Of a DNA stretch of 64,000 nucleotides, positions 299 through 24,100 are shown piece after piece. How positions within the stretch are numbered: position 1 is the stretch's first letter; the number at the start of each line of letters is the position of its first letter. The DNA comes from a virus (Duplodnaviria; Caudoviricetes): the IMG/VR virus record IMGVR_UViG_3300032312_001355, positions 1 through 64,000 of that record. The stretch is one strand, 5' to 3'. Below the pieces are notes generated by a model that was not told the origin of the DNA, ran no database searches, and saw only the letters and a list, made by a program, of their open reading frames with translations. Position numbers and translations under genes: made by a program.

Positions 299-466
299 AT
301 TGTTAGTTCCCGGCCCCGCAGATGGAAAACTATTTTCGTTTGCGGGGTTTTCCCCTATCTATGTATGAAGGGGAAAAAAGAAATACTTGAAAAAGGCAGG
401 GAAGTGGAGTATTATTATCTCAACGGCAAATCATTAGGGATAAGCCGATTGTTCTAGGGAGAACAA

Positions 467-847
467 ATGAATAACTCAGACAAAATGACGGTGGGCATTA
501 CTTTCACCGTTGGCGAGTTGTGGGAAGCCGTGTTCGGTTCAGACGGCGCAGGAATGGTTCATTGGTCTACCGAAATCAGAAATGAAAACGGCGAGGACAT
601 TGACCTATGGACTACCGATGAAAACGGTGAGTCAGTAACAAATCCACAAAACTTCCGAGTCTATGAAGATGAAGAAGAGAAGTGGCACGATGTATCTCTC
701 GAACAACTTCGTGTTGGTTTCGAGAAGGCTCTTATGGACAACGCTTCCCATTGTGGCGGTTATGCGTTGAAGCTTGACGACTACGATGCTTGCTTCGGCG
801 ATGTCGTAATTCAGTATGCGGTATTCGGAGAACTAATCTACGGATAA
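467..847 (+). CDS. Acidic phage hypothetical protein (C-terminal DxxIQxAxFGExxYG motif)
   Basis: Own promoter, TAGGGAG RBS at 455-461 and terminator. Confidence 0.85.
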   Translation: MNNSDKMTVGITFTVGELWEAVFGSDGAGMVHWSTEIRNENGEDIDLWTTDENGESVTNPQNFRVYEDEEEKWHDVSLEQLRVGFEKALMDNASHCGGYALKLDDYDACFGDVVIQYAVFGELIYG

Positions 848-998
848 CAGAAGTAGAAAGAAGCCCCTTGCTAAACGGCGAGGGGTTTCTTTTTTTCTCC
901 CTACTATGTATAAAGGGGAAAAAACAATTTACGACGAGCCGTTGAATTAAGCAGGGAAGTAGAATAGAATTAAGATACCAACTAGGGAAGGAAAAATT

Positions 999-1142
999 AT
1001 GGCGTGCGAAGATTATCCGTGTTGCGGACACGAGATGAATGATTGCGACGGAACACTTTACGGATCCGACGAATCCATTAAAGAGCGTGTAATGGCTAGA
1101 GGGGCATACGCCGATGACTACTATGAAACGGATAGGGGGTGA
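999..1142 (+). CDS. Small acidic Cys/His-containing protein, 47 aa (MACEDYPCCGHEMNDC...)
   Basis: Read by hand, below the ORF-track cut-off; RBS AGGGAAGG at 984-991 downstream of promoter 942-970. Confidence 0.7.
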   Translation: MACEDYPCCGHEMNDCDGTLYGSDESIKERVMARGAYADDYYETDRG

Positions 1143-1147
1143 GCAAG

Positions 1148-1291
1148 ATGAGCAAAGGGTATTTAGAAATACTTATGGAGTGGCATCCCGACGGTAACTT
1201 TACCGAGCAGGATATGTGGGACGCTATCGCTGAAGCGGAAGGCGTGGATGTGAATGAAATAAGTGATAGGGACTTAACGGAGTTTATTTAA
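1148..1291 (+). CDS. Small acidic protein, 47 aa (MSKGYLEILMEWHPDG...)
   Basis: Read by hand; follows the previous ORF and ends just before a terminator; 13 D/E. Confidence 0.7.
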   Translation: MSKGYLEILMEWHPDGNFTEQDMWDAIAEAEGVDVNEISDRDLTEFI

Positions 1292-1404
1292 GAGAAGCCC
1301 CCCGTGATGAACGGGGGGTTTTTCTCTCCCTATATATAAAGGGGAAAAAAGAAACACGGCAAGGGTTATTGAAAAAGTCATAGAAGTAAAGTAGAATAAT
1401 AACA

Positions 1405-1481
1405 ACTCGGTAGGGGTAGCCGTTGGTCACCTGAACGACCTGAAACCTAGGGGGTCGGAAACAATGCGGCACCTACCGAGT
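1405..1481 (+). ncRNA. Candidate structured RNA or 5' leader starting at the predicted TSS of promoter 1369-1397
   Basis: Perfect 10-bp closing stem ACTCGGTAGG (1405-1414)/CCTACCGAGT (1472-1481) enclosing GCCG/CGGC and CGACC/GGTCG stems; no family recognised. Confidence 0.4.
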
Positions 1482-1538
1482 CTTAACAACTAGGGAAACG
1501 GAAAGGGGGAAACCAAAATTCCAAAAGAATTTATCGGC

Positions 1539-1742
1539 GTGGATGCGCCAAAGTATCCAGATATAGTCGTGCCGTTGGTAGGAGAAGACGGCAACGCAGT
1601 CGCAATTATGGGACGAGTGTCTAACGCAATGCGTAAGGCAGGAGTTTCGCAGGAAGATATAAATCAATATCTCGATGAAAGTATGTCGGGAGATTACGAT
1701 AATCTTCTTCGCACCGCTATCAAATGGGTAGCAACTGAATAG
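1539..1742 (+). CDS. Conserved phage hypothetical protein (GEDGNA...SGDYDNLL motif)
   Basis: ORF track; the frame is open further upstream, so the true start may be near 1518. Confidence 0.8.
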   Translation: MDAPKYPDIVVPLVGEDGNAVAIMGRVSNAMRKAGVSQEDINQYLDESMSGDYDNLLRTAIKWVATE

Positions 1743-1874
1743 ATAGATGTGTTGGGGAGTAGGTTCCAGAAAAGCGTCGCGCCTACTCCCTAACCGCTAT
1801 ATATGAAGGGGAAAAAATTGAATAATAGAATTAAATAAATTACAATTAAGATACCAACTAGGGAAAGAGAAAAA

Positions 1875-2330
1875 ATGATTACCAAAGAAAAAGTAAATTA
1901 CTGGACGATTGAATTAACTAGCGATTGCCGTTGCTTCGATTGTAATGATTGTGGCGTGGGATACATCCGTAATGAGGACGGCGAGAAGTGCGAGCAATGC
2001 TATAAAGAATTAACGCCTTCAAACTCTTGCTTCGATTGCTGGAAAGATAGTAAAGAAAGTTTCTACGATGCGCTTGAAGCGTGGCGAGATAAAGTCGGCG
2101 TTACTTGGGACTTGGTCCGTATCGACGGCGTTGGGGTGGGTTGGAACAGAGACAGCGGATACGCAATAAAGAAGTTTGATGAAGCCTTGGACGCAATAAC
2201 TATTAGAGGAGACTTCCGTATCACAGCAACTTGGGACGGAGCAAACACTTTCACCGCAAGCCGAGCGAGTCACGATGAGCCAACAGGAAGCGCACAATTT
2301 ACTTTCACTTTAATAAAGGGCAGGGAATGA
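1875..2330 (+). CDS. Hypothetical protein with several CxxC motifs (Zn-binding)
   Basis: Promoter 1818-1846, RBS AGGGAA 1860-1865; CNDC, CEQC, CFDC motifs. Confidence 0.8.
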   Translation: MITKEKVNYWTIELTSDCRCFDCNDCGVGYIRNEDGEKCEQCYKELTPSNSCFDCWKDSKESFYDALEAWRDKVGVTWDLVRIDGVGVGWNRDSGYAIKKFDEALDAITIRGDFRITATWDGANTFTASRASHDEPTGSAQFTFTLIKGRE

Positions 2331-2451
2331 GCTGAGCAAAGTTTTCTCCCCTTTATAAATAGTTAGGGCGTGGCGTTGCGAAAAGTCAGGAAAGCGACTA
2401 CACTGAATCTACAACTTAATACCGATACCAAATTAACTAGGGAGAAGTTAA

Positions 2452-2700
2452 ATGACCACAGAAGTTAAAGACTTAGAGTTAATGCGTGCCGTGTGCCTTC
2501 ACTTGGATTACAACCTATACCCTGCCGTTCATAACGCTTGGGATAGTTTGGCCGTGAAAGCAATTCAAATCGTTCGCTCGTCTGATGAATGGATAGATGA
2601 GGAATTCCCTACCCCTGAGGGACACAACTATCAAGGCAGAAAGACGATAAAGGTTAGCGAGTTAATGGACGGCCTTTCCCTATGGCCACTCGTTGATTAA
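2452..2700 (+). CDS. Hypothetical protein
   Basis: Promoter 2376-2404, TAGGGAG RBS 2438-2444, terminator at 2715. Confidence 0.8.
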   Translation: MTTEVKDLELMRAVCLHLDYNLYPAVHNAWDSLAVKAIQIVRSSDEWIDEEFPTPEGHNYQGRKTIKVSELMDGLSLWPLVD

Positions 2701-2859
2701 ATCTCCATAAAGAAAAGCCCCGTCAGAAATGGCGGGGTTTTTTTCTCCCGCTATGTATAAAGGGGAAAAAAGAAAAGTAAATCAAATGTAGAGAAATGTC
2801 AGGAAAGTAGTGTAGAATAAAGTTACTCGCTAAGGGAGCGAGAGAATAGGGAAACAAAA

Positions 2860-3168
2860 ATGGAACTATTAACAAAAGAACTTCGCAAGAAGTTGCCACC
2901 GCTTTACGCTAATGAGAATGAGGGCGACCCCGTTCTAGTATGTAAATTCTTCGCACTAGCAAGCAACTGGACTTGGTATGCGATGGAGTTTGATGGAGAA
3001 GATATGTTCTTCGGTATCGTTCACGGCTTCGAGAAGGAGTTAGGCTACTTCAGCCTGAAAGAGTTACAAAGCCTAAAACTAACAATGGGCGGGATAGATA
3101 TTCCTGCCGTTGAAAGAGATATCAACTGGACACCCCGCCGACTATCAGAACTCAAGGAATACGCCTAG
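2860..3168 (+). CDS. DUF2958-family protein
   Basis: Motifs PxxxxKFF..WTWYxxE..D..FFGxV.G.E.ELGYFSLxEL..VERD recognised. Confidence 0.8.
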   Translation: MELLTKELRKKLPPLYANENEGDPVLVCKFFALASNWTWYAMEFDGEDMFFGIVHGFEKELGYFSLKELQSLKLTMGGIDIPAVERDINWTPRRLSELKEYA

Positions 3169-3267
3169 AGTATAGAAACGAAAGGGAGCCCCGCCGAAAG
3201 GTTGGGGCTCTTTCTATATAAGAAGGGGAAAAAATAAAACGGATCTAGGAAAGGGTAGGATAAGGGT

Positions 3268-3573
3268 ATGGATAATCTAATGAATATAAAAAATGTAATG
3301 TTTATCGGTGATTACTTTTCAATGATGGTCAGCGTTGCCGTATCGGAAGATGAATTACAAGATGGCGAGATATATGAGGACGCTTGCCTTAGGGCTGCGG
3401 GTAATCTTTTGAAGGAACAATATGGCTGGGATGTAGTCGCCGTTTCAAATCATATTGGCGTTCTTGATGAAGGAGACCCTAACTGCGAGACTTGCTACGG
3501 AGAGGGAAAAGTAAGAAGTGAAGTATCGGGGGAAATGAGACAGCTGGAGTGTCCCGATTGCTTCAACGGATAG
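3268..3573 (+). CDS. Hypothetical protein with C-terminal CxxCxGxG...CxxC zinc finger; probably leaderless
   Basis: CETCYGEG and CPDCFNG; -10 TAGGAT 3256-3261 ends 7 nt before ATG. Confidence 0.8.
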   Translation: MDNLMNIKNVMFIGDYFSMMVSVAVSEDELQDGEIYEDACLRAAGNLLKEQYGWDVVAVSNHIGVLDEGDPNCETCYGEGKVRSEVSGEMRQLECPDCFNG

Positions 3574-3617
3574 GGGAAAAAGTTTTTGAGGTAACTCAGT
3601 AATGATAGACTGGTAGT

Positions 3618-3724
3618 CCGGGTAGTAGCGAGGATTCCCTTCCTATCGCTCCCCGTTGAGATAGGCTTCCCTGCCTATCGCACCTCACCCCTGCCTCCCT
3701 AGCGGGGGTGAAGTGTCCCTTTTG
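3618..3724 (+). ncRNA. Candidate small RNA with three stem-loops carrying anti-AGGGA loops
   Basis: Intergenic; extended -10 TGaTAGACT at 3603-3611; hairpins 3619-3655 (loop TTCCCT 3635-3640), 3660-3679 (loop TTCCCT 3667-3672), 3680-3716 (loop CTCCCTA 3695-3701); T-run 3720-3723. Confidence 0.6.
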
Positions 3725-3779
3725 AAAAAGTCAGATAGGTAATGTAGAATAAAGACACTAACTCAGAAGGGAGAAAGTT

Positions 3780-4016
3780 ATGAGTTATGAAGGAAGTATG
3801 AAAGGTTCGGGTATCTATTCCGAAGATGTAACACTTGAAGTTGAGTGCGGAGAGTGCGGTAAGGCTTGGGAAGAAGATTTTATGACCGACGACTGGGGAA
3901 ATGTATCCTCAGAAGTAAAGTGCGAGTGCGGTAACGCTTGGACTTTCGAGAAGGAACAAGAGGAAATGGGCGACCCTAATCAGCCCGATACCTTGGAAGA
4001 GTTGTGGGGCGAATAG
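3780..4016 (+). CDS. Acidic zinc-ribbon protein
   Basis: CGECG and CECG motifs; promoter 3722-3750, RBS AGGGAG 3768-3773. Confidence 0.8.
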   Translation: MSYEGSMKGSGIYSEDVTLEVECGECGKAWEEDFMTDDWGNVSSEVKCECGNAWTFEKEQEEMGDPNQPDTLEELWGE

Positions 4017-4104
4017 TCCCGAAGCCCCTCACCGAAAGGTGGGGGGTTTTTCTATGTAAGAAGGGGAAAAATCAGGAAGGCCGGGTGAGGTTATTCTTTA
4101 GAGT

Positions 4105-4350
4105 ATGGAAATAGTTCAAAAGGTTTATCACCCAAATGGATCTAATGCTCCGTTTGTTGTGGCTATCGTTGATGACCCTGCCGAAGGAGATACAAAGATA
4201 GTAATAATGTTTGAAGATGATGAATACACTGCCGTTCTTTCGCTGGACAGACTTATTGAAAGTGAGGATATAGGAGAGAAAAATTCTCACCTTGCCGATA
4301 AATATGAGTATGCCTTGCGTGATGAATTGTGGAATGACTTTAACTACTAA
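4105..4350 (+). CDS. Acidic hypothetical protein, probably leaderless
   Basis: -10 TATTCT 4092-4097 just upstream of ATG. Confidence 0.75.
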   Translation: MEIVQKVYHPNGSNAPFVVAIVDDPAEGDTKIVIMFEDDEYTAVLSLDRLIESEDIGEKNSHLADKYEYALRDELWNDFNY

Positions 4351-4364
4351 GTAAGGAAAAAATC

Positions 4365-4934
4365 TTGACAACAATAGCTGCGGTTCAGGGTGAAGGCTGG
4401 GCGGTTATTGGCTATGACTCTAGGGTTTCAGAAGAAGATGGCAGGACTTATATTCTGCCGAAAGATAATGGAAAAGTTTTTAAGAATGGTAATTACATAA
4501 TTGCCGTGGCTGGGGATGTAAGAGCAATAAATATATTAGCCCACGTTTTTAAGCCACCAGTATGCACCGCAACTACTCTAGGTTTGAAGTTAGATAAGTT
4601 TATGACTGCCGTATTTATCCCGGAACTAAAAAAGTGTTTTGAGGAAGCCAGTTATTCAAAAGATGGAGAACACGAAAGCCAGTTAGTTATCTTGGTCAAT
4701 GGGACTATCTATGAGATAGGTGAGGACTTTTCTTGGTGCCACGATACAGTTGGGGCGTATGCCGTTGGTTCAGGTTCAGCCTATGCTCTAGGGGTTCTCA
4801 ATGCGTTATCAGAAGGAAAGAAAAGAACTCTCACTAACGCAAGGTCAGCTATCAAAACTGCGCTCGCCGTATCCTCAAAGTTTGATAATAAAACTGCCGA
4901 GCCTTTTTATCTTTTAACTCAATACCGAGATTAG
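4365..4934 (+). CDS. Ntn-hydrolase, proteasome beta-subunit/HslV-like threonine protease
   Basis: N-terminal M-T-T-I, DSR near residue 17-19, Lys in KVFK, AVAGD, AVGSGSxYALG; length 189 aa fits the fold. Confidence 0.8.
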   Translation: MTTIAAVQGEGWAVIGYDSRVSEEDGRTYILPKDNGKVFKNGNYIIAVAGDVRAINILAHVFKPPVCTATTLGLKLDKFMTAVFIPELKKCFEEASYSKDGEHESQLVILVNGTIYEIGEDFSWCHDTVGAYAVGSGSAYALGVLNALSEGKKRTLTNARSAIKTALAVSSKFDNKTAEPFYLLTQYRD

Positions 4935-4989
4935 TTTTTCCCCCCTATACATAGACAAAAAATAACCCCCGATTTCTCGGGGGCTACCT

Positions 4990-5106
4990 TTAGCACTTTT
5001 CGCAGATTATGTTGCGGTAGTAATCTATTTGCCTAATCTCAAATACCTCTCCGCACCGATAACAATTTATCCAAATCATTACCTCTCTTGCCTTTACTCT
5101 TGCCAC
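4990..5106 (-). CDS. 38-aa zinc-ribbon protein (MARVKAREVMIWINCYRC...IICEKC)
   Basis: Read by hand: minus-strand -10 TAGAAT (5134-5139), RBS AGGGAA (5112-5117), GTG start, terminator 4957-4985. Confidence 0.7.
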   Translation of the reverse strand: MARVKAREVMIWINCYRCGEVFEIRQIDYYRNIICEKC

Positions 5107-5301
5107 TTGAGTTCCCTTTCTCTTGGCTTGTATCTTAATTTTATTCTATGTGCCGTTGTAAGTGTGGGAACTTTTAGGTTCGTGTCGTGTATTTATTTAT
5201 TTATTTATTTTCCCCCGTTATATGTAGCAAAAGTCAGGAAGGTCGTGTAGAATAAAGCCATACACTCACCGAGGGAAGTGAGTGATTAGGGAGTAAGTGA
5301 A

Positions 5302-5952
5302 GTGCCAAAGAAAAAGACAAAAGTATGTCTAGGTTGCTTAACAGAGTTACCACTAGAAAAGTTTAATAAGTATGAGTCTGGTATTCAGGGAGTAAGAGCA
5401 AGATGTAAGAAGTGTTTTTCCGTCCACCGCAAAACTTCAGCACAAAGAACTAACAAGCGTTTATCTCTAGAAGCAAAAGGTAAAAGAAAATGTAGTAAGT
5501 GCGGAAAGGTAAAAGCCTTATCGTCTTTCCAAGAGGCATATCGCACAGAAAGAAAGCGTTGGTCAAGAGAAGGTGCGTGTAAGCCTTGCGTATCTATTCG
5601 CGGAAAAATTAAGCATAAGACAAAGAACCTAGATGTAAGAAAATATGTATTTGATTACCTAAAGAACCACCCTTGCGTGGACTGCGGTGAAAGTAATGTA
5701 TTAGCCCTAGAGTTTGACCACCTACACAGTAAGAAGTTTGATATTGGAACTGCGCTCGGTGGAAATACTAAACTTGCTAGCCGAGTTAAAGAGGAAATTA
5801 AAAAGTGTGTAGTTCGTTGCTCTACTTGCCACCGAATAAAAACTCATATGGAGATAAATAGTTGGAAGTTTGAGTTATCTTTACAAGATAAGGCAACAAG
5901 CACTAAAATAAAGAGAACAAAGCAATACAAAACACTAATGAAGGTGGGGTGA
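5302..5952 (+). CDS. HNH endonuclease with N-terminal zinc-finger repeats
   Basis: CVDCGE..LEFDH..C.VRCSTCHRIKT HNH core; KxCxxC repeats in the N-terminal half. Confidence 0.85.
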   Translation: MPKKKTKVCLGCLTELPLEKFNKYESGIQGVRARCKKCFSVHRKTSAQRTNKRLSLEAKGKRKCSKCGKVKALSSFQEAYRTERKRWSREGACKPCVSIRGKIKHKTKNLDVRKYVFDYLKNHPCVDCGESNVLALEFDHLHSKKFDIGTALGGNTKLASRVKEEIKKCVVRCSTCHRIKTHMEINSWKFELSLQDKATSTKIKRTKQYKTLMKVG

Positions 5953-5958
5953 TTACAA

Positions 5959-6081
5959 ATGGGATATGTAGAAATCTTTCGCTTAGATGAGGAAGGTGCT
6001 GGCTGGGTAGATTTATCAGAAGCGACACCTGCCGAACTCTCAGACCTAGAAAAAGGTTTAGCAGAGGAAGGCGCACTCTAA
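5959..6081 (+). CDS. 40-aa acidic protein (MGYVEIFRLDEEGAGW...)
   Basis: Read by hand; ends just before terminator 6087-6118. Confidence 0.65.
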   Translation: MGYVEIFRLDEEGAGWVDLSEATPAELSDLEKGLAEEGAL

Positions 6082-6184
6082 AAAGTAAGCCCCCACCGAA
6101 AGGTGGGGGTTATTTTTTCTCCGCTATATATAAGGGGGAAAAAATGTATTTGAGAAAAGTCAGGAAAGTTGCTAAAATAAAGAT

Positions 6185-6400
6185 ATGAAATTCTTACCTG
6201 ATAGTGCGGTGCTTGGGACACTTGGTCGCTTGAAGCACGCTGGAAAATCAAGCCGTAGAAAAGGCATTACTCAAAGAGAAAAGAAGGAAACAGTATTGGC
6301 ACAGAATTGGGACGCTTTTGAGCAAGACTTTAGAAGTTTTGATGAGTTGCTTGCCGAGGCTAAGCGACACGCTCTAGAGAAAGAAAAGGCAGAGAAGTAG
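6185..6400 (+). CDS. Hypothetical protein, leaderless
   Basis: ATG 7 nt after -10 TAAAAT of promoter 6150-6178. Confidence 0.75.
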   Translation: MKFLPDSAVLGTLGRLKHAGKSSRRKGITQREKKETVLAQNWDAFEQDFRSFDELLAEAKRHALEKEKAEK

Positions 6401-6433
6401 GAAAAGTCAGGAAAGTTTGGTAAAGTTCTACTA

Positions 6434-6622
6434 GTGGCTAAGGGAGTCACAGGAAGCAGGGACAAAGTGAAAACACAGGCAAAGTTTATTCGTCGCAGAA
6501 TTGCGGTTGGTCTTATCTTGTTGGCTTTATTCGCTTGGGCTATGGACGCTACAACACCTGAGATGTGTAAAGTTCCGACAGAGCAGATGAACCAATTCTG
6601 CCTAGACCTGATTTATCCATAA
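6434..6622 (+). CDS. Small membrane protein (one TM), probably leaderless
   Basis: Hydrophobic IAVGLILLALFAWAM; -10 TAAAGT 6421-6426. Confidence 0.7.
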   Translation: MAKGVTGSRDKVKTQAKFIRRRIAVGLILLALFAWAMDATTPEMCKVPTEQMNQFCLDLIYP

Positions 6623-6634
6623 GGGGGAGAGCAA

Positions 6635-6823
6635 ATGCCTATCTATCCAATGGAAGAAGTTTTAGAGTATGCGGAACTTTCAGCGTATGACCTTTATGAA
6701 GAACTATACGAACAGAAAGAGCAAGAGCGAGAAGGTTTGATTTATCTATTCAGAGAGTGGTTGGACTTGGTAAGCCCTACCGACTTTGGAAATGATGAAG
6801 GATTAGAAGGGGTTCTAGTATGA
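6635..6823 (+). CDS. Acidic hypothetical protein
   Basis: RBS AGGGGGAG; ORF track. Confidence 0.7.
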   Translation: MPIYPMEEVLEYAELSAYDLYEELYEQKEQEREGLIYLFREWLDLVSPTDFGNDEGLEGVLV

Positions 6824-6978
6824 CTACCGACTCACTATATATAGAGGGGAAAAAAGAGTGTGTGTTGTGCGGAGATGTCGCTACACATTTTCCCACAATG
6901 AGTTTTTTTGGAGAAGTAAAAGGTTATTGTTGTTTTGATTATGACTGCTCAGAGACAACAGAGGGGGCGTGTGCGTGA
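6820..6978 (+). CDS. 52-aa Cys-rich protein (CVLC...CC..DC)
   Basis: Read by hand; ATGA and GTGA overlaps with both neighbours. Confidence 0.6.
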   Translation: MTTDSLYIEGKKECVLCGDVATHFPTMSFFGEVKGYCCFDYDCSETTEGACA

Positions 6979-7208
6979 GCGACTTGACGAAATACTTAGA
7001 GAAAGAGTGGGGGTCGCTTGTAGGTGCGACTCTTGTGAAGGTTAGAAATGCTACTGCCGAAGAAGCGCAGGAGTTGGGGTGGGATATTTCAGACCACGAA
7101 CCAATTCCTTTTTTGGAGTTTGATAATGGCGAAGGGCTATGTCTATCTCAAGACCCTGAAGGTAATGGTCCGGGGTTTGCCTTCCTATTTACTAAAGACT
7201 ATATATAA
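6975..7208 (+). CDS. Hypothetical protein (SQDPEGNGPG motif)
   Basis: GTG start coupled to the previous stop. Confidence 0.75.
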   Translation: MSDLTKYLEKEWGSLVGATLVKVRNATAEEAQELGWDISDHEPIPFLEFDNGEGLCLSQDPEGNGPGFAFLFTKDYI

Positions 7209-7220
7209 GGGGGAAAAAAG

Positions 7221-7424
7221 ATGATGTTTGATATTGGCTTTGGGTTACCGACTTACTTAGCTCATATAACTATTGGGGTTGGTCGCTATACCCTTTGGCT
7301 CAATATCGTGGCTACTAACTGGAAGACCATTCACTTTGGGAAAAGGTGGGGGGACTGGGTTGGTTGTTTCTCCGTCTTTACTTTTGCCTATACAAGGAAG
7401 GAGGGTAAGAATGGTTCTAGATAA
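7221..7424 (+). CDS. Hypothetical protein
   Basis: ORF track; purine-rich RBS. Confidence 0.55.
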   Translation: MMFDIGFGLPTYLAHITIGVGRYTLWLNIVATNWKTIHFGKRWGDWVGCFSVFTFAYTRKEGKNGSR

Positions 7425-9371: not shown

Positions 9372-9713
9372 TTAGGACTGTGAAAGCGTTTCTAATAAAA
9401 CTTCAGCATATACAGACTCAAGACCTAGTTGCTCACCTTCATCATCATAACCCCCTGCAATAACTACATCACCGAGAATTACATCAGGAAAGTTTGGAAA
9501 GTTAGCCAACCAAATTTCAGTTGCTCTTTCATTTATTGGAAGACCCTGCAACTTTCCTTCTTCATTCATAATAAGGGTGTAACCATTTTCAAGAGTCTTT
9601 GCTTCAATAAGACCCCCAACTGCGGTTTGAAGTGTTAGTAGTTCGTTACTATCTGCCGTTAGGTCAATGATAGAAGCGTTTCCTTCTGCGGTTAGTTTAA
9701 TTGCTAGTTTCAT
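9372..9713 (-). CDS. DUF3846-family protein
   Basis: LQTAVGGLIE..NEEGKL.GLPINERAT..DVILGDVVI motif; own early promoter and TAGGGAG RBS. Confidence 0.8.
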   Translation of the reverse strand: MKLAIKLTAEGNASIIDLTADSNELLTLQTAVGGLIEAKTLENGYTLIMNEEGKLQGLPINERATEIWLANFPNFPDVILGDVVIAGGYDDEGEQLGLESVYAEVLLETLSQS

Positions 9714-9862
9714 TTGTTTTCTCCCTAGTGTGGTACTTGGTTTCCCACTACCAAAAGAATAGATTACTTTCCTGCACTTTGCAAGATTAAAGGGAAGCTT
9801 TTGTGCGGTGTGTCTTAGAAAAAGAAAAAGCCCCCCTTGGATAGGGGGGCTAATTCTTGCGG

Positions 9863-10123: not shown

Positions 10124-10204
10124 TTGTTTCTCCCTTTGTGTTATTGAAGCCCCTTGCTTCAATAAGTAAAAGATAACCTACCTTCCTGCACTTTGCAAGT
10201 CTAT

Positions 10205-13975: not shown

Positions 13976-15141
13976 TGTCTGATCAAGCAATTGACAAAGT
14001 TGTTACTTCACTTGTTTCTGCTGGAGATCCTTGCTGGGATGGTTACAAGCAAGTTGGAATGAAAGAAAAGAACGGCAAAATGGTTCCTAACTGCGTTCCT
14101 GTTGACGCTTCAGATGATTCAGAGGACTCAGAGTTTGCAGCAAAGAAAAAGAAGCGCACTATCTCTCAAACTCCTGCTCCTAAGAAAGACAGAATTAAAG
14201 GCTCTAGCAAAAACAAAAAAGGTTCTGCATCAGGAACTCGTAAAGTTAAATTTTCTGCAGCAGTAGAAAAGTCTTTGAAGAATAAAGTTGAACAGCACAA
14301 CGAAAAAGCAGGTAAGGGCCGTCGTGCAACTCTTGGAATGTTAAAAGCTGTTTATCGCAGAGGTGCAGGTGCTTACAGCGTCTCACATCGTCCAGGTATG
14401 ACACGCAATCAATGGGCGATGGGTCGTGTAAATGCATTTTTAAGATTGTTGAAGTCTGGAAAGCCATCAAACTCTGCATACACAACAGATAATGATCTAC
14501 TGCCTTCTGGTCACCCACGTTCAACTAAGAAATCAAACTCCATTGCAGCTTCAGCAGGTTTGGTTCCTGAAGAAAGCGATCTAGCAGAAGCGCTAGTCGA
14601 GATTGCAGATAAATATGGAAGATTCAATGAAGATGCCACAGGAATCTGGGCAGGATACACACCTCCAGCCGAAAACGATGTCAGAGGTATCGGAGTCAAA
14701 TGCTCTAACTGTGTTCTATACATGGGTAATGGCCAATGCCGAATCATCGAACTTGAAGTCGAAGACGAGGGTAAGTGTCGTTTCGCGGTTATCCCAGATG
14801 GCGTCGTTGATGTCGGAATTCTTGAAGGCGAAAAACTAGGAAACGATATTCAGTCACCACAAGAGCTAGCAAAGCTTGCTAATGAGTGGAGATATGAGCA
14901 AGAATTAAATATTGATCTTCTAAATGAAGAAGATTATTCATCTCCAGAAGAAGCAATCCTTGCTATGGCAGAGTATTCAGGTTATGGCTACGAAGCAGAG
15001 CATGCAATCCGTGCTTCTTGGCTTCGTGGTGTCCGTAATGGAGATAATCCTTTTAAAAGAGCATCATTACTGGCATCTCTTGGTTACGAAAGCTTAGATG
15101 GAGACCTTCTTCCAGTAAAGGCAGAAGAAGATGGAGAATAA
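13975..15141 (+). CDS. Multidomain head-associated protein
   Basis: CWDGYKQVGMK..VPNCVP motif; KAVYRRGAGA..HRPG..QWAMGRVNAFL..DLLP.GHP domain; CSNC..C..GxC Cys cluster. Confidence 0.7.
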   Translation: MSDQAIDKVVTSLVSAGDPCWDGYKQVGMKEKNGKMVPNCVPVDASDDSEDSEFAAKKKKRTISQTPAPKKDRIKGSSKNKKGSASGTRKVKFSAAVEKSLKNKVEQHNEKAGKGRRATLGMLKAVYRRGAGAYSVSHRPGMTRNQWAMGRVNAFLRLLKSGKPSNSAYTTDNDLLPSGHPRSTKKSNSIAASAGLVPEESDLAEALVEIADKYGRFNEDATGIWAGYTPPAENDVRGIGVKCSNCVLYMGNGQCRIIELEVEDEGKCRFAVIPDGVVDVGILEGEKLGNDIQSPQELAKLANEWRYEQELNIDLLNEEDYSSPEEAILAMAEYSGYGYEAEHAIRASWLRGVRNGDNPFKRASLLASLGYESLDGDLLPVKAEEDGE

Positions 15142-18100
15142 AATTGTTGTAAGCTCTTACAGAGCATATAGCAGTCGTGAACAGGCACGTTTTATTCGTC
15201 AAGAAGCAAATGTTTTACTTGAAAAAGCCAACGAATTTTCTACAACAAGTCGTCGAGTAAATCGTCGATCTGCATACAAGGTTCTTGCTCGTTCTCTACA
15301 AAAGACCAGAGGATTACCTTTCTCAATCCGTAAGCATCAAGCGCTTACAGAGCTTTCTAATTACATCTCTCTAGCTAAATACAACAAGGTTATCGGTTTA
15401 GAGGCATTTAATACAGACTTACTTCCAACATCACATCCAAGATCTACTCGAATGAACTCAATGAGTGCTTCTGCAATTGCAGAGGCTCAGATGCGTTGGA
15501 TTCTTGATGACCCACGAATTAAGGATGAGACAGTAAAGAGCCTTCTTGCTTCTGCAATGTTTTCTCCTATCGACTCTCCAGAGCATAAGTATTCAATGAT
15601 TCGGTTAGAGAACATGCCTCAGGGACAGGTTCCTGTTGAAGTTCTTCTAGCTGCAGCAAATCCTTTTGCTGGTAAGAACTCAGCTGCAGCTCGTCGTGCT
15701 CGTGAAGCTGTCCAGCTTTCTGACCGCTTTGAGCGCTGGATTAATATGGGAAGGTCTGCGGCTAAAAGAGCTACAGATGGTTTCCGTGTCTATGTTGCTA
15801 GAAACGATGGCTCTACAAGAAGTCTTTCTGGAGAACTACTAAACCAGAATATGTTTGATCCAAACCTTGTTGACATTGAAATGGGCAAGGGTAAAGTTGC
15901 AACAGTTCCTACAAAGCTCGGTGAAGGTCTTGAAGCTTTTATTAAAAGCAAGGACTCGCAAGATGGTTACTCTTCTGTAGAAGCAGAGGTGCCTAATGGT
16001 GCACAGGTACTTCCAGAAAACAGCATTGTTGTCTCAGATGCTCCAAGTATTTATCGCAAAGATGAGGGTAATAAATATACAGACGATAAATACGACATTG
16101 TTAAATTTGATAATCCTAAGGCTGCACAGACTGCTATTTCCGATGGACAAAAAAGAGCTGCAGAGCTAGATAAGCCAGAACCAAAGCTTCTTAAAAAGGG
16201 CGAAGTAGATGCAGACTCAGGTAAGCAGTTCTGGGATATCGAAGAACCAGTATTCGGTCTCTATCGTCGTGGAAAAAACACACCTCTTGCATTCGCTCAG
16301 TCTTGGAAAGATGTAAACAATGAGATCCTTCGTGACGAACCTTTCCTTGATGAAGATGAAGGTCGTGAATATACACGCCCTGAGCCTCAGACAGCAGACG
16401 ATAATGTCCCACTTCTAGATCAAGCAGATGAAATTTTTAAGCCAGCTAAAAAGAAATCTGAAAAGAAAGAAAAAGTTTCTTCATTCCCATATGAAGTTCC
16501 AGATAGAGCATACGAATTTAATCCAAACGAAGAGTACACACCAGAGTTTGAGTTTGATGATCCTGTATCAATTGCAAACGATCAGACACCAGAAGAACTA
16601 GAAGATGCTCTTCTTACATCAGTAGAACCTGTTAGTGATACTGAAAAAGCAACTGGCTACGCTCCAATTAACTTTACAGATGGCCGTGAAAGAGATGTTC
16701 CAGCAGAAGCTATCGCTGCAGCAATTCGTGAGCAAGGTGGAGATGCTGAAATGGCTCTTGCACAGGCTTACGACAAGATTGCAGGAGATAACAAGAACCA
16801 AGAAGCCCTTGATAAATCAAGAGGTGCTAAAGATGAGAAAAAATTAGAAGAAGAAACTAAAAAAGCAGATAAGATTCTTAAGGATGCAGAAAAAGAAGCT
16901 AAAAAGATTAAGAAGCCTACATCTGATGAAATTATTGAAGAAGAGATTCAAAAGCCAGAGCCAAAGGCAACTACTGCTGAGCCAGAAGATGCTCCTACAG
17001 AGGGCTTAGAAGATCTTGAAGATGTATCTGAAGACACATATGTTCCTCCTTTGCTTGAAGGTCTTTCAGAAGAAGAGTTAGCATCCTTTAAGGAAGATGG
17101 AGACTACCGACCATTCTTGCCAAAGAACGCGGATATAGATACACCTGAAGGACTTTACAAGTTAGATCCAAACCCAGTTGACCCTAAAGAAAACTACACT
17201 CCAAAAGATCTTCAAGGTGAAGTACCACCAACTACAGCTTTAGATTTGTCTGCAAATACAGTTAAAGATTTAACTAATGAACTGAGCAACGCTATTAATG
17301 GCACTGGTGAACACGGTGCTGGTTTTGGAGAGATGCTAACCGAAGACCCTAACGGTGAACTTGTAAACTCTCCTGTTCCTGCAGAAGCTCTTCGAGATGC
17401 TCTTCAACTTAAGGGTAAAGATACAGATGCAATTATTGAAAAGATTAATAAGAAGGCTGCAAAAGCAAAGGCAAAAATAAAGCCTCCAGTTTCTGAAGAA
17501 CCAGAAGTAGAGCCAGATACAAAAGAAGAAGAGCCTAAACCTAAAAAGGCAGTTACCTACAAGCGTTCAGGTAATCGCACTCTTCTTCGTGCTGGCAAGG
17601 GCGGAGCATTTAAGGATAAAGAAATTGCTGACTTCCTTGACGAGAATGGTTTTGAATGGACTGGAACTGTTGAAAGAGATGGACAAACTCTTCCAGTTAA
17701 TTCAGAGTCTGCTACACAGACTGATGAAGAATTTAAGGCTTTTGCTCGTGAACTTCGTGATCGCTTCGGTATTGATTTAGAGCCTCGTGCTGCAACTGCA
17801 AAGTCACCTGCTCAAGAACCAATTGATATTGATGCGCCAGCTCCTGAACCAGAGGTGCCAACTCCTGCACCTACTCCAGAACCAACTCCAGAAGAAGTTA
17901 CACCAGAAGAGCCAGTCGTAACTCCTGAAGAAACACCAAAACCTGTTGAAGATGAAAAAGATAATTGGATTAAGCAAGAAGATGGTACTTGGGTCAACAC
18001 CAGTACTGGAGAAATTGTAGAAGAGCTTCCTGAAGGTGCTACTGAAGGAAAACCTGCACCAGAAGAGCCAACAGTTCCTACACCAACTCCTGAAGAAGAA

Positions 18101-21100
18101 ACTCCAGTTGTTGAAGAAACTCCTAAGACAGAAGAAGAAAAGAACTTCATTAGAAAAATATCTGCCTTACTGTTTGATCAAGTAGGCAAGGCTCTCTCTG
18201 CGGCTAAAGCAGATAAGGGATTAAAAGCTCTTGAAGGATTAACAGATCGACAACTATATGACTTGTTCGGTCCTTTCAATGTATTAAAGCTCAATGAGCT
18301 TCTTAAGAGAGCTATGGAAAGCGATAAGGAAAGTGTCTACGGAAATCGCAAAGATATGATTTCCAAGATTATGTTCCTTAAGTATGGTGCTGGATTTAAG
18401 AGCAATGAAACTCCGTTTATGCGTAAGTCAATGGATGAGTTTGAAAATAGTTTAATGCGTAGCTCTACTAAAGAACTAGAACAGATTCTTGATCTTTACT
18501 ACGATGACATGGATGCAAGAGTAGCTGAACAGAACGAAGAAAAAGAAAAAGCAGATGAGCTAAAAAGAGCACGAGAGCGTCGCCGTAAAGCTGCTGAAGA
18601 TAAACTTCTTGAGAAGTATGGGGACGATGCAGATGCTGAAAAACCAGAAGAGGAAGTAGAGCCTGAGCCAGAAGTAGAGACTCCAGCTGAACCACCTCTA
18701 CCACCTCTTTCTGCTGACGCTAAAGAGATTCTTAAAGCTCTTATTGATAGACGCCGCAAGATTCAAAGAAAAATTGATAAAGCAGATCTTGATGAGACAA
18801 CTACTGCTGCAAAGAAAAAAGCTCTTAAAGATGAGCTTGATGAAGTAACTAGAATTATTGATTCTCTTGTCCTAGGTGAAAAACCAGCCGAGAAGCCAGA
18901 AGAAACTCCTACTGCAGAGGTTAAGGAAACAGAAAAGCCTCAAGAACCACAACCAAGTATTACTTCAGTTTTTGCACCTAACTTAAAAGCTGGAGATGTT
19001 TTCAAGGATGACTACTTTACAATTGTAAGTATTGAAACAGGTCTTACTAAAGAAAGAGATATGGAGATAGTTCCAGCAACTAGACTTACTGGATACTATC
19101 CAAACTCTGTAGAGCAGAGCACCAAACTTTGGGCAGATGATACAGAAGTAGATGTGTATCGTGGAGTTACACCTCCATCAAAGGGAGATCTACCAGTACT
19201 TAGCAAGCCAGAAATGAAATCCTTTAGTCCTACTGGAAAACTTCAAATAATTGGAACGTTTAAGAGAAAAGACGGCTCTGAAGGAAAGAAGTGGGGCCTA
19301 AAGAACCCAGCTGACGTAGAAAAATACAACGCAGCTATGGATGAGTATAAAGAAGAACGTAAACGTCGTATGGCGCTTTGGACTCCTCCAGAGGTTACAA
19401 CTGTCAATAACGATAATGCAAATACCCCTGTTAACCCACCCGAGAAATCATCTTATGTATCTAACGTCCCAGCATCTGACGTTCAAGTTGGCGATATTGC
19501 ATTTAGAAAGAACAAGTACGGGGCTAGAGAGTTCTTCACGGTTACCAAGGTTCTTGGAACTAAAGATGGAGTTACATCTCTTGAAGGACACTATGTTGGA
19601 CATCAAACACAGGTTAAGGAATGGCGTGAAGCTACTCCAATCGACATTATTCGTGGAGAAGTAAATCTTCCAGCATCAGGAGACAAAGAACCTCTAGATA
19701 GACCAGATAAATCTCTTCCTAACTATTCTCAACTTGAAAAAGAACGTCAAGAAAAAATTGCAGAGGCAGATAAGGGTTATACCTTTAATGCTGAAGGATC
19801 TATCGAAGCTACACCAAAAGTATCCAAACCAAGACTACCTGCATTCTATGGGTCAGCAGAAGAGCTTTTGGCTCTTGGAGATGGAGCTAATATTCAATCA
19901 GCTCTAGATGCTAGAGAAAATGGATATGTAGTTTTTGACTTTGAAACTTTAGGAAACGATGTACAGAATGTATTAAATCCAGACGCACCTATCCAAGCAG
20001 CTGCAGTTAGATATGTTGGTGGTGAAAAGGTAGAAGAGCTTAACATCTACATTAATCCTGAGAAGCCTTTGGGCGATTACTATTATGAAACAGATAGTGA
20101 AGGAAATAAAGTTCTTCGTGCAAATAGAATGAGAGATGCCGAAGGCAATCCAATAACAGATGAATGGTTAGCTACACAGCCAAGTATTCAAGAACAACTA
20201 CAAAAACTTGTTGACTTCTTTGGACCAGACCCTATTCTTGTTGGACAAAACATTGGCTTTGATTTAAACGTGCTACAACGCTGGTCTCAAAAAGTTGGAA
20301 TTGACTTCGAACTAAAGGGATCAATTGACACGCTACCAATTGCTCAAGCACTACAAAAAATTGAACGTGGAACAGTTACATTCCCAGAGAATCCTGCAGA
20401 AGGAGATGAAGCTCTCTCTGCTCTAGGAAATGCTTGGACATGGAGTGGAACAGCGTGGAAAGCACCTTCTAATGCTCTTAATCAATTAGCGGAGCGTCTA
20501 GGAGTAACTACTGACTCTTCTGATTTCCACAATGCATTATTCGATGTTGGAGTAACTGATCAAGTTTTAAGAAAGCTACTTGAAAATCTTAAAGCTGGCA
20601 ACATCCCTACTGGAGGAAGCGCAGCTTATGCAGAAGGATTTAAGAAGTGGGTACTTTCTCTAGCTGAAGAAAAGAAGAAAGCTTCTAAGAGAGAAGCTGA
20701 CAAGATTGTTTCTGAAGGACTTGCTGGAAAACCTGTAACTGGTGAAAATGTTGATGCAGCTGTAGATGAAGTAAATTCTGTAGTAGAAGAGCCTGTAACT
20801 ATTGTTGAAGGCGAAGAATCTTCAGACTCTCCAAAGGAATATGTTTCACCTCTATATGGAGATAAACTTAGTGAAGAATGGGTTAAAGATCCAGAAAACA
20901 CAGACTTTATCTCTAACGCAAGAATAAAAGACTTAAAAGTCTCAGACTTTATTACTGGCTCTGATGGAGAGCTTTACGAAATTATTAAACTTGAAGATGA
21001 TGAAGTACAGCCGGGCAACGCAGTAAGAATTATTAGAGCAAATCTTAATACTGGTCAGATTCTCGAAGAAAGACAATCAGAAAGAGATGATGGAGGAACT

Positions 21101-24100
21101 GGATTCTTCCTAGTTGGAAAAGTTGATGGTGGCTTCTATCGCAGAAAAGACAATGCCGATAAGAGCAATGCTCAAATAGAAACAGAAACTATCGAAGCTA
21201 TTCCAGATGTTGATCCAGTTGTTATCCCTGAAGTACAGCCTGTTAAGGGTGAGAATGTAACTCCTGAGCAGGTAGCAACAGTTGTTAACGATGCAATTGA
21301 TGCGATCACAACCTCTAAGCCAGATGCATCTATTGAAGAAGCTGTCAAGGGTCTTAATGTTGATGAAACCATTAAAGAGGCAGTAACTGCTAAGCCTGAA
21401 AACGCAGAAGGAGAAACAGGTTTCCATATCTCCTCTGACGGAGTTACTTTAATTAAGCCTGGAGACAAGGTTATCCACGCTAAGACTAAGAGAACTGGAA
21501 CTGTAAGCGTTCTCCTTCCTTCATATCAGGGTGGAAAATATAAGAATTATGTAAAAGTTAGATATGACGATTCTAATGAAAGAGAGCCTGTAGCATCTAA
21601 GAATCTTTCAATTGTTTTCCGACCTGAATTTGTACCAGTAGTTAAGCCTAAAGGTGAGACAACTGTTAAAGATATTTCAAACAAGATCAAGGATATTCAA
21701 GGAACAACACCTGCAGAAGGTTCAGTAAATCCTGATGAGCTTGCAGAGAAGTTTAAGTCTGCAGAAAAAGAACGAGATGACAAGGTAAAGGAAACTAACT
21801 TTGTAAAGACATCTACTTCTGTAGTTGCAAAGGTAAAAGAAAATCTTCCAGCACGAGGAACAACTGAAAGCTCTCTTCCAAGTCTTAAAACTGGAAATCT
21901 ATTCGATGTAACTTTTGCAATAGACAAACCAACTGAGAAAGAGCTTAAAGATAAAGGCGTAGACTTAAGCCTAGATTCAGCAGATGACTTAATTGTATTT
22001 AGAGCAACTAAAGATTTATTCCTCAGAAATCAACCTGTTGCAACTATTAAACCAGACGGATCAATTATCTGGCGTACCGAGAACGACAAGCGTTCATTCT
22101 CATTAGAGCTTGAAAGAGTTCTTCAAGATTTCATAGATCCAGTAACAAATCTTAACGCAATGATTGTTATCAATGAACCAGAAGATACTGAAGGAACAGA
22201 CGCCGATAACTTTGGCAACGGAACTCTTCTTGGTGAATCAGAGAGCTCATTTGACTATAACAACATCTCTAACTTCCCTCCAACAGAGGAGCAGAAGAAG
22301 ATTGTTGATGCAATTATGACTGGTGGGGATGTCATAGTTCAAGCTTTGGCTGGCACTGGAAAGACTTCTACTCTAGTTCTTGCTGCAAAGAGAATTTTGG
22401 CAGAAAATCCAGCTAAAAAACTTCTTTACATTGTATTTAATAAGGAAACTGCTGAAGAAGCTCAAGGCAGAATGCCTCAGAACGTAGATTCTAGAACTAT
22501 GGACAACATTGTCTACTCAATGCTTCCAGATAATCACAAGGAAAGAAATAAACTTAGCAGTGTCTTTAAGATAAATGAGAGAAGTCTTATCGATTACACT
22601 GACTATGTAAACCTATTTGAGTACTACCAGTACGAGCCAGTAACTGTATCTATCAGAGGCACAGAAACAACTCTAGGAAGAAACGATCTTGTTCAAGAAA
22701 TAAGAGAAGCAGTAGATAGATTTGCAATTTCAGCAGACGATGTTTTAACTGAAAAGCATTTCACTAAGAAAACTCCATTCTACGACACAGTTCCACCAAT
22801 TCTTGTCGAGTATGCAAAGAAAATGTGGAAAGATGTAAGTACTGAAGAAGGTTGGGACCCTTCCTCAAAGAAGCTGTCAAGAATTGATTATTCACATATG
22901 CTTAAAGCTTGGGCACTAACTAAGCCTCAATTTATAGATGGTTTAAACTCTGGATCAACTAGCACTAAGCAATTTAAAGATAGAAAGAACGATATGTTCT
23001 TCTTTGATGAAGCTCAGGATATGAACCCAGTAATTGTAAAACTTTTGGCTGACCAAGAAGGAATTCAAAAGGTATATGTTGGAGATAGTAATCAAGCTAT
23101 CTATGCATTCCGTGGAGCTGTAGATGAGCTTAATAACGTAAAGAATGCAAAAGAGCTATACCTAACTCAGACATTCCGTTTCGGTGCAAAGGTTGCAGGA
23201 ATAGGAAACAGATTCCTAACTCTACTTAACTCTAAAAATAAGGTAGTAGGAAAGCCTGGAGAAGACGACGGCGAAATTGTAGAGAATATGGAAGACCCTA
23301 CTGCAATTATTGCTAGATCAAACGGTGGAGTTATCGACAGTGTCTTTGACCTATTAGCTAAGGGAAAGAACCCAGGATTAAACTTAGAGACCTACTACAA
23401 GGCTATGTCATATGCAAAGTCTGCAGCATGGTTGATTGCAGCTAACAAGGGAACACCTGCATACAAGAAGCCAAAACTCCATGAAGATTTAGCAGGTTTC
23501 CAAAACTGGAACGAAGTCCTAAAGGCAGTTCAGGATGGCAAATCAGTAGGTGGAGCGATGTACATGGTTCGTCTTCTAAGAGATAGAAAGATGACTATAA
23601 AAGAGTTGGTAGATAAGCTCAACAGTATTACTCCTATCCGTGGTACAGGGTTTAGAACAGATGCATACGTTCCTGTAGGCAAGGAAGCACTCGCAGACGG
23701 AATTACTGGAGAGCTCGGTACTGGTAGAACTAATAGTGGGTTTAAAGGAAAGCTTACATACACAATTAAAGACGGAGTAATATCTTTCCAAAACTCAAAG
23801 TCATATAAAGATTTTCTTTTGAAGGACTTTACATATAACCCAGAAAAATTCTCTTTTGAAAAGGCTTTTGGAAAAGAGCAAGAAGAAGATATCCTTAATT
23901 TAATTAACGATGTTAGACGATGGGTACAAAACTATCCTCCAAGAATCCCTATTGACGCTGAAATTATTACAGCACATAAGTCAAAGGGTAAAGAATGGGA
24001 TCGCGTAAAGCTTTTTGATGATTTCAAGCAACCTGAGATCAATGATGAAGGAGAGATGCAACTTCCTGACCCAGAAGAACTCAGAATCTCATACGTTGCG

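Follow-up and report, generated by a model that had tools for sequence, protein, structure and literature searches.

The question raised by positions 3574-3779 of an uncultured virus genome (Duplodnaviria; Caudoviricetes) is whether the gap that separates a 101-amino-acid (aa) open reading frame (ORF; 3268-3573) from a downstream 78-aa ORF (3780-4016) encodes a functional RNA and, if so, which messages such an RNA would act upon. The stretch analyzed, hereafter the window, comprises the first 64 kb (64,000 nucleotides, nt) of the 72.9-kb IMG/VR virus record IMGVR_UViG_3300032312_001355, which is estimated to be 55% complete, and the gap lies within the first ~10 kb, an early-type region of small genes without known families, every one of which forms a separate cassette with a terminator, a repeat, a promoter and a leader. 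An original prediction, made from the letters of the window, had placed here a three-hairpin phage small RNA (sRNA) whose loops would switch off early genes through their ribosome-binding sites (RBSs). The comparative evidence makes it very probable that a conserved, plus-strand, independently promoted structured RNA is real, and the reading that it is a trans-acting sRNA whose main targets are the phage early mRNAs, repressed by base-pairing, is given a probability of about 0.45.

The RNA gene, its fold and its distribution

The element carries no plus-strand ORF of at least 30 aa, the sole overlapping frame being one of 30 aa on the minus strand. The original prediction had described an ORF-free stretch that follows an extended -10 box, folds into three hairpins with C-rich loops and ends in a T-rich run, and every coordinate and motif of this anatomy was correct, as shown in Table 1. 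A folding energy of -52.0 kcal/mol (z = -4.98) was computed for the plus strand, and none of 200 shuffled sequences was as stable. The promoter signals are also preserved, TGnTAnnnT preceding the first stem by 6-7 nt in each of the 20 distinct homologues compared, with a GGGG(T)AAAAA motif at the same position 5' of the RNA promoter in all clades. The 21-bp (base pair) AAGGGGAAAAAA repeat that stands 5' of the other early promoters is represented at the RNA promoter by a half-copy only, and the spacer of this promoter is without the GTCAGGnAAGT motif typical of early-gene promoters, an absence that may allow control different from that of the early genes. Hairpin 3 is probably the terminator hairpin, with a 15-bp stem rich in guanine and cytosine (G+C); a terminator consensus scan did not list it. 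The tail that follows reads CCCUUUUG in the window and CCCUAUUG, CUCCCUUG or GUCUAAUUG in relatives, and because it is less U-rich in the relatives the termination point is uncertain.

Homologous loci were found by several routes. An exact 20-mer of hairpin 2 is present in 8 IMG/VR contigs, relatives of the two flanking ORFs led to 24 and 21 loci, and degenerate patterns led to 25 viral and 25 metagenome loci. A covariance model, R1, was built from 12 sequences with the structure set by hand, and it gave one full-length match per related IMG/VR or metagenome contig retrieved, amounting to 94 matches of 61-129 bits and 24 distinct sequences. Two complete genomes (134-135 kb), both with terminal repeats, and two partial genomes (105-106 kb) contain exactly one copy each. 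The true matches all lie on phage or metagenome contigs; R1 found no match in 151 sampled Actinomycetes genomes, and a pattern scan of 185,579 prokaryote species genomes returned 19 matches, all in unrelated coding DNA and below chance expectation.

Gene products of the window include a portal, major capsid and major tail proteins, a DNA polymerase and a helicase, and by its capsid protein the phage comes nearest to Actinomycetia phage DSL-LC01, followed by large Microbacterium, Arthrobacter and Gordonia phages. DSL-LC01 is described as a metagenome-assembled phage from Dishui Lake (PMC10611076). This capsid kinship bears out the label "freshwater actinophage" that the original prediction had used for related contigs, and the label is therefore fair; the window phage is probably a lytic, large actinophage. 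No copy of the RNA and no cluster of AGGGA or AGGGG (AGGGR) sites was observed in DSL-LC01, the closest named phage by capsid, whose G+C content is 53.6%; this fits a co-occurrence of the RNA with such sites, and is confounded by the different composition and probably different host of that phage. Among the cultured or named phages of a phage collection, no DNA or protein relatives of the RNA locus were found. The comparison with Rfam that the original prediction had suggested was run: no match reached the gathering score in the 64-kb window, the element and seven homologous loci, searched with E values of up to 10 allowed, gave only noise, and a tRNA/tmRNA scan found no genes. The RNA family is thus a new one and, as judged from sequence comparison, is confined to one group of uncultured freshwater actinophages, whose genomes measure ~105-135 kb.

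The three hairpins foreseen from the single sequence were recovered by RNAalifold on homologous loci (13 sequences), which predicted the outer stem of hairpin 1 together with hairpins 2 and 3 and reported 9 compensatory pairs. Over 35 counted pairs, standard pairs make up 97.6% of 798 pair cells, falling to 42-54% when the partners are slid by 1-3 columns. Changes on both sides were observed for 15 of the 35 pairs (82 cells, as compared with ~25 cells in shuffles), and the covariation score was reached by none of 500 shuffles. The alignment used for these counts was fitted to the covariance model, and the independent check is the separate folding of each sequence, which returned these three hairpins for every one of the 23 distinct full-length homologues. 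Compensatory changes occur in 6 of the 13 pairs of hairpin 1 (97.9% of cells paired), in 5 of the 7 pairs of hairpin 2, and in four pairs of hairpin 3, where five further pairs show one-sided changes, mainly G-U wobbles. The outer stem of hairpin 1 is CGGG/CCCG or CAGG/CCUG and its inner stem GCGA/UCGC, GCGC/GCGC, GAGCC/GGCUC or GAGCG/UGCUC; the stem of hairpin 2 reads GAUAGGC/GCCUAUC, GGUGAG/CUCACC, GGUGGGA/UCCCACC, GGUAUGC/GCAUACC or GAUAAGCAC/GUGCUUAUC. With compensatory changes spread across 24 distinct homologues, the element lies far beyond chance.

The strand, which the original prediction had left open, could be settled as plus. Sixty-one pair cells are G-U pairs that form on the plus strand only and become A-C mismatches on the minus strand, whereas 4 cells show the converse; every one of the 23 sequences closes hairpin 3 with a G-U pair; and the conserved promoter points the same way. 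In loci oriented by their flanking genes, the R1 match always lies on the strand of those genes. The neighbours themselves vary by clade with the promoter-RNA unit intact: in one clade a further gene separates the RNA from the 101-aa ORF, and some clades have a different downstream element next to it. Because the promoter-RNA unit is constant while its neighbours vary, the RNA is best regarded as a stand-alone plus-strand gene.

C-rich loops and the AGGGR class of ribosome-binding sites

Differential conservation was observed for the three loops. Loop 1 (UCCCU) and loop 3 (UCCCUAG) are invariant across clades while their stems change; UCCCUAGC, which is loop 3 with two stem positions, is invariant in the 23 full-length distinct sequences, and for the CCC of both loops the unpaired probability is 0.77-1.0 in the 23 homologues. 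Loop 2 carries CCCU in two clades only (that of the window and the GGUGAG clade); another clade has UUCCAA at this place, and the short clade has ACUUGU, CUUGU or ACUUAU. The original prediction had described nearly identical loops on differing stems, which is true of the window; across the relatives it holds for loops 1 and 3 and fails for loop 2. Since CCC is lost from loop 2 in one whole clade, three anti-RBS loops are not required, and the conserved core, as far as sequence comparison reveals it, is two C-rich loops (1 and 3) and not three. A fourth CCCU is located in the single-stranded 3' tail of the window phage. Conservation beyond structural need was also observed for CCGGGU, GCUCCCYGWUGAG, CGCAC, UCCCUAGC and the G-U closing pair. 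Two other roles for these segments were considered and rejected. A hammerhead ribozyme, suggested by CUGAUGAG after hairpin 1 in five relatives, does not fit the window, which reads CCGUUGAG, has no GAAA after hairpin 2 and gave no Rfam match; a mimic of a glycine (CCC) anticodon loop does not fit either, as loop 3 (CUCCCUA) has U where tRNA position 37 is a purine.

The sequence complementary to these loops is concentrated in the early region. TAGGGAR occurs at 17 sites in the 64 kb, 16 of them within the first 10 kb, and 34 of 50 AGGGAR sites lie within the first 11.4 kb. The loops had been proposed as exact complements of the early RBS motifs, with eleven sites named, and AGGGA or UAGGGAG is indeed located 5-9 nt 5' of the start codons of early ORFs at all of these sites except 1492, where no obvious start follows. 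AGGGAR together with AGGGG(A/T)AAA is concentrated near the RNA gene in each of the three genomes compared, over a span of 15-20 kb in the two complete ones, where many early genes read AGGGGUAAAAAUG. When genes were called in the three genomes by a crude but motif-neutral caller and AGGGR was sought within 20 nt of the start, it was present at 50 of 128 early-region genes vs 28 of 298 other genes (odds ratio 6.2, Fisher p 4.8e-12; significant in each genome). On the other hand, 18 late or replication genes of the window use AAGGA, AGGAG, GGAG or AGGAGG sites, which confirms the earlier assignment of late genes to AGGA/AGGAG-type sites, with AGGGR nearly absent there.

The loops would discriminate between the two classes by pairing: UCCCU is fully complementary to AGGGA, forms one wobble pair with AGGGG and has a central mismatch with AGGAG. 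The median energies of duplexes between the loops and the region from -22 to +3 of early vs other genes are -11.3/-8.6, -9.6/-7.6 and -9.4/-8.1 kcal/mol (p 0.027, 0.012 and 0.0055). Some early leaders present the motif in a hairpin loop. The hairpins at 449-466 and 2433-2451, with the Shine-Dalgarno (SD) sequence UAGGGAG in the loop, end directly at the start codons of ORFs 467 and 2452. The leader of ORF 6434 has an AGGGA loop 5' of an AGGGR RBS, and this hairpin covaries between genomes with the loop UAAGGGA constant. The layout of a leader-hairpin AGGGA followed by an AGGGR RBS occurs 3, 4 and 1 times, respectively, in the three genomes, as compared with ~0.8-1.0 in shuffles (maximum 3-5); it is real for individual conserved leaders and is no statistically strong genome-wide rule.

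The mechanism that we propose would begin with host RNA polymerase transcribing the RNA from its own extended -10 promoter, probably to an end at the G+C-rich hairpin 3. The transcript would fold into the three hairpins and expose UCCCU in loops 1 and 3 at least, and in the window phage also in loop 2 and the tail. The C-rich loops would pair over 5-8 bp, as loop to single strand or as kissing loops, with early AGGGA/AGGGG RBSs and leader loops, and such pairing would occlude the SD site and lower early-protein synthesis, while late sites of the AGGAG type, mismatched to UCCCU, would escape. That the C-rich loops pair with the G-rich RBSs of some target, whichever it may be, is likely. The case for the mechanism rests on the anatomy, the class bias of the RBS motif and the precedent set by 6C, an sRNA of Actinobacteria; what we infer is that and when the RNA is transcribed, where it ends, that it pairs and that the effect is repression. 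The bolder version, in which one RNA acts as a translational class switch, is possible but somewhat doubtful: the early SD sequence AGGGA or AGGGG, often held in a loop, would pair better with UCCCU than with the 16S tail, and a chaperone-free RNA of ~105 nt would shut a whole temporal class post-transcriptionally, to which AGGAG late genes would be invisible.

Several observations weigh against repression of the phage early mRNAs as the main function. The RNA promoter shares its GGGG(T)AAAAA upstream element with the early promoters, so that the RNA and its proposed targets are probably expressed in parallel, and the timing of an off-switch is no more than we infer. The contrast in duplex energy between early and other genes is modest and some of the top-ranked sites belong to late genes; the pairing seed is short (5-8 nt); AGGGR is found on ~40-50% of early genes only; the U-tract after hairpin 3 is poor; and CCC is absent from loop 2 of a whole clade. 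Moreover, the base 5' of the loop 3 UCCCU varies (C, A, U) and shows no co-variation with the RBS flank across clades. Host mRNAs may be targets as well. Of the early off-switch as originally proposed, a real, independently promoted plus-strand RNA, loops 1 and 3 and the early bias of AGGGR are supported, and the proposal is weakened by the variable loop 2, the modest energy contrast, the flank without co-variation and the timing.

Table 1. Coordinates in the window of the predicted RNA gene, its signals and its candidate targets
Feature	Position	Strand	Details
Upstream promoter element ATAGGGGAAAAAG	3570-3582	+	half-copy of the 21-bp AAGGGGAAAAAA repeat (family D1); overlaps the stop codon of the 101-aa ORF
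RNA promoter	3583-3611	+	-35-like TTTTTG 3583-3588, 17-nt non-conserved spacer, extended -10 TGATAGACT (TGaTAGACT) 3603-3611
Predicted small RNA, ~105 nt	3616-3724	+	covariance model R1 126.3 bits, E 3.7e-26; single copy in the 72.9-kb record
Hairpin 1	3619-3655	+	bulged 13-bp stem, loop UUCCCU 3635-3640
Hairpin 2	3660-3679	+	7-bp stem, loop UUCCCU 3667-3672
Hairpin 3	3680-3716	+	15-bp G+C-rich stem, loop CUCCCUA 3695-3701, invariant G-U closing pair 3680/3716
Pyrimidine-rich tail CCCTTTTG	3717-3724	+	weak U-tract, extends into the -35 box of the promoter that follows
Sigma-70-type promoter of the next gene (78-aa ORF)	3722-3750	+	TTGAAA-17-TAGAAT, 10/12 consensus positions; kept in relatives
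UAGGGAG, RBS of ORF 467, candidate target	455-461	+	in loop of hairpin 449-466
UAGGGAA, RBS of ORF 999, candidate target	983-989	+	motif position
UAGGGAA, RBS of ORF 1875, candidate target	1859-1865	+	motif position
UAGGGAG, RBS of ORF 2452, candidate target	2438-2444	+	in loop of hairpin 2433-2451
Leader of ORF 2860, candidate target pair	2833-2853	+	AGGGA in loop of hairpin 2826-2842; UAGGGAA at RBS
AGGGAG, RBS of ORF 3780, candidate target	3768-3773	+	motif position
Leader of ORF 5302, candidate target pair	5272-5293	+	AGGGA in 7-bp hairpin loop (5263-5284); UAGGGAG at RBS
UAGGGAG, RBS of ORF 9372-9713, candidate target	9721-9727	-	motif position
AGGGAG, RBS of ORF starting at 10123, candidate target	10130-10135	-	motif position

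Alternative explanations and surroundings of the gene

The alternative that survives best keeps the same RNA anatomy and places the main targets among host mRNAs. The RNA would then be a phage-made analogue of 6C that arrests host growth or replication, and the AGGGR sites of the phage would be incidental or secondary. 6C is described as acting in this way in Actinobacteria, with growth arrest upon its overexpression (PMC6486639), and the phage RNA sits amid small family-less early genes of the host-takeover type; its hairpin 3 (CCCCUGC/GCGGGGG, loop CUCCCUA) moreover resembles the 3' hairpin of 6C RNAs from Actinomycetes genomes (for example CCCCCGC/GCGGGGG with loop UCCUCCCA). Set against this resemblance, the 6C model matches neither the element nor the whole record at E up to 10, and the phage loops hold three C's each, not six or more. 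The complementary motif is also strongly enriched in the early genes of the phage itself, so that self-repression would be hard to avoid. We regard host mRNAs as main targets as unlikely, though as an explanation to be taken seriously.

It is improbable, though not far-fetched, that the UCCCU loops and the G-U pair are protein recognition sites and that the RNA serves as a decoy, scaffold or sponge for an RNA-binding protein or nuclease of the host or the phage. Such a role would account for the conservation beyond structural need, including the G-U closing pair of all 23 sequences, and for the missing co-variation between loop flank and RBS flank; the zinc-ribbon ORFs on both sides, one of which (101 aa) has a weak, sub-threshold match to Anti-TRAP, could be cited in its favour as well. 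No RNA-binding domain was found in 28 early ORFs, however, and we know of no bacterial regulator defined by recognition of a UCCCU loop, which counts against this explanation, as does the coincidence it would make of the complementarity to a class-specific RBS motif. The two flanking ORFs, 3268-3573 (101 aa) and 3780-4016 (78 aa), both on the plus strand, encode small double-CxxC zinc-ribbon proteins without a family and travel with the RNA in most clades, not in all; the 101-aa ORF shows a CxxCxGxG motif, and its Anti-TRAP match has an E value of 0.003.

A cis-acting element, either a compound terminator or insulator of the 101-aa gene or the 5' leader of the downstream gene, is very improbable. 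The position between a stop codon and the next promoter is that of the single-hairpin terminators of the region, and hairpin 3 is terminator-like, but the other terminators are single hairpins with T-runs, the element has its own extended -10 kept in all 20 homologues scored, the downstream gene has its own conserved promoter, the loop sequences are under selection, and the neighbours on both sides change by clade with the unit intact.

Scarcely credible is the pair of alternatives raised in the original prediction, a CsrB/RsmZ-like sponge made from the minus strand with AGGGA loops or hairpin 2 as a DNA operator: the minus strand folds well (-51.5 kcal/mol, z -3.6) and the reverse complement of 3666-3675 does equal the spacer motif at 395-404 (GGCAGGGAAG), but the sponge is contradicted by the G-U cells and closing pair, by the plus-strand promoter, by the transcribed loops, which read UCCCU and not the GGA of such sponges, and by the absence of any CsrA-family or other RNA-binding Pfam domain from the 28 early-region ORFs, and the operator by a covarying hairpin 2 stem, a changing loop and a 10-nt match that is confined to the subclade of the window and not conserved in relatives.

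The cassettes around the gene share further elements. The ~21-bp repeat CTAT(A/G)TATAAAGGGGAAAAAA occurs at least 9-13 times in 346-7222 (for example at 891-927, 1317-1353, 2738-2774 and 6111-6147), mostly between a terminator and the next promoter, and forms an imperfect palindrome with the T-run of the terminator. Early sigma-70-type promoters with the common spacer AAAAGTCAGGnAAGTnnnGTAGAAT were observed at 387-415, 942-970, 1369-1397, 2789-2818, 3722-3750, 5225-5253 and 6150-6178; a conserved promoter spacer is unusual, and it may be an operator or the site of a phage factor. The AGGGGTAAAAA motif serves in the related complete genomes both as a promoter-upstream element and as an RBS immediately 5' of ATG.

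A second conserved structured RNA was detected in the early region, a leader of ~78 nt at 1405-1483 (+) directly after the promoter 1369-1397, with homologues such as L017:1902-2020, L020:3482-3600 and L021:5447-5565; in some clades it lies directly 3' of the three-hairpin RNA. Three nested covarying stems (outer, middle and inner hairpin) are seen in 18 distinct homologues, the outer stem being CUCGGUGGGGGG/CUCCCCACCGAG vs CUUAGUAGGGGC/CACCCUACUAAG and the middle stem GCCG/CGGC vs GUCG/CGAC, and the single-stranded stretches CACCUGAACG and GGAAACAAU are invariant. It has no Rfam match and is a candidate riboswitch-like leader or second sRNA.

Two protein genes of the window are also of note. 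An early gene at 4365-4934 (+) encodes a peptidase similar to HslV and the proteasome beta subunit (PHROG 1040, E 4e-24; Pfam Proteasome at threshold) with no partner ATPase nearby. Amid the head genes, 15131-25972 (+) encodes a 3613-aa polyvalent protein with DEDD exonuclease, UvrD-type helicase, ArdC-N and zincin (MPTase-PolyVal) domains, a set typical of injected anti-defence or DNA-processing proteins. This ORF had suggested hairpin promoters of the N4 type, which were rejected, the protein being an ArdC/UvrD/exonuclease polyvalent protein and not a virion RNA polymerase.

Relation to known regulatory RNAs

To our knowledge, little has been learned about structured regulatory RNAs in lytic phages, and no example has been described from actinophages of uncultured freshwater Actinobacteria. 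The family presented here has unusually clean comparative support, since the promoter is conserved, 15 pairs covary and loops 1 and 3 do not change, and it comes with a concrete and falsifiable class of targets. Should repression of the early mRNAs hold, the phage would split early from late translation by a Shine-Dalgarno dialect and one small RNA, and a mode of action known from 6C, in which C-rich loops pair with G-rich RBSs in the absence of a chaperone, would extend to viruses. UCCCU loops and AGGGR RBSs could also serve as a compact orthogonal translational repressor in high-GC Gram-positive hosts.

The closest counterpart is 6C itself (RF01066; B11 in mycobacteria), which is described as repressing mRNAs without a chaperone by pairing of its C-rich loops with G-rich RBSs such as AGGGGGG (PMC6486639); dnaB and panD are among its mycobacterial targets. 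6C belongs to the phylum of the likely host, and both RNAs consist of consecutive hairpins with C-rich loops, which are the functional seeds of 6C, and end in a long, G+C-rich, terminator-like hairpin with a C-rich loop, the last hairpin of 6C locally resembling hairpin 3 of the phage RNA. They differ in that 6C has two C-rich hairpins with loops of at least six C's (CACCCCCCCAA, CUCCUCCCA), whereas the phage RNA has three hairpins and CCC; 6C is chromosomal across Actinobacteria, whereas the phage RNA was not found in the 151 sampled Actinomycetes genomes; and the proposed main targets of the phage RNA are its own early mRNAs. The 6C model (gathering score 47 bits), run at E up to 10, gave no match on 3400-3900, on seven homologous loci or on the whole 72.9-kb record. 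The same model on five Actinomycetes genomes found 6C-like RNAs in three, at 41-46 bits and thus below the gathering score (L145:1501-1574, L146:1501-1577 and L147:1501-1574), and none in the sampled 1.4-Mb and 2.7-Mb genomes. The relation of the phage RNA to 6C is one of analogy, or at most of unprovable distant kinship, and not of membership.

Similarly, the UCCC-motif sRNAs of Firmicutes (RNAIII hairpins 7/13/14, RsaE/RoxS RF01820 and LhrC of Listeria) direct redundant unpaired UCCC loops at SD regions. At least two unpaired UCCC motifs in hairpin loops, by which such sRNAs are recognized, are present in the phage RNA in loops 1 and 3, and in the window phage in loop 2 too. RNAIII of Staphylococcus aureus makes two loop-loop contacts with rot mRNA, a double contact that resembles the early phage leaders with AGGGA both in the leader loop and at the RBS. 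The Firmicutes sRNAs differ in phylum and in being chromosomal regulators of host regulons, not of phage genes. Neither RsaE (RF01820) nor any other Rfam family matched the element, the only RsaE match lying elsewhere in L092 (22 bits, E 6).

The repeated hairpins of the alphaproteobacterial cuckoo/CcsR RNAs, cuckoo being named already in the original prediction, carry anti-SD-like pyrimidine loops (CCUCCUCCC); these RNAs differ in motif, phylum and context (tandem chromosomal copies), and the Rfam search gave no match for the phage RNA.

Among phage RNAs, the c4 antisense RNA of P1/P7 is described as pairing by its loops around the RBS of a phage mRNA, which is thereby repressed (PMC12197685). 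With c4, as with P22 sar and lambda OOP, the RNA presented here would share the character of a phage-encoded structured RNA with RBS-complementary loops, which here read UCCCU and CUCCCUA. The Rfam C4 model does not match the element, and c4 is processed from the operon of its single target, acts in lysogenic immunity and uses long specific complementarity, whereas the phage RNA is a stand-alone gene with its own promoter whose short generic seeds would suit a whole class of RBSs.

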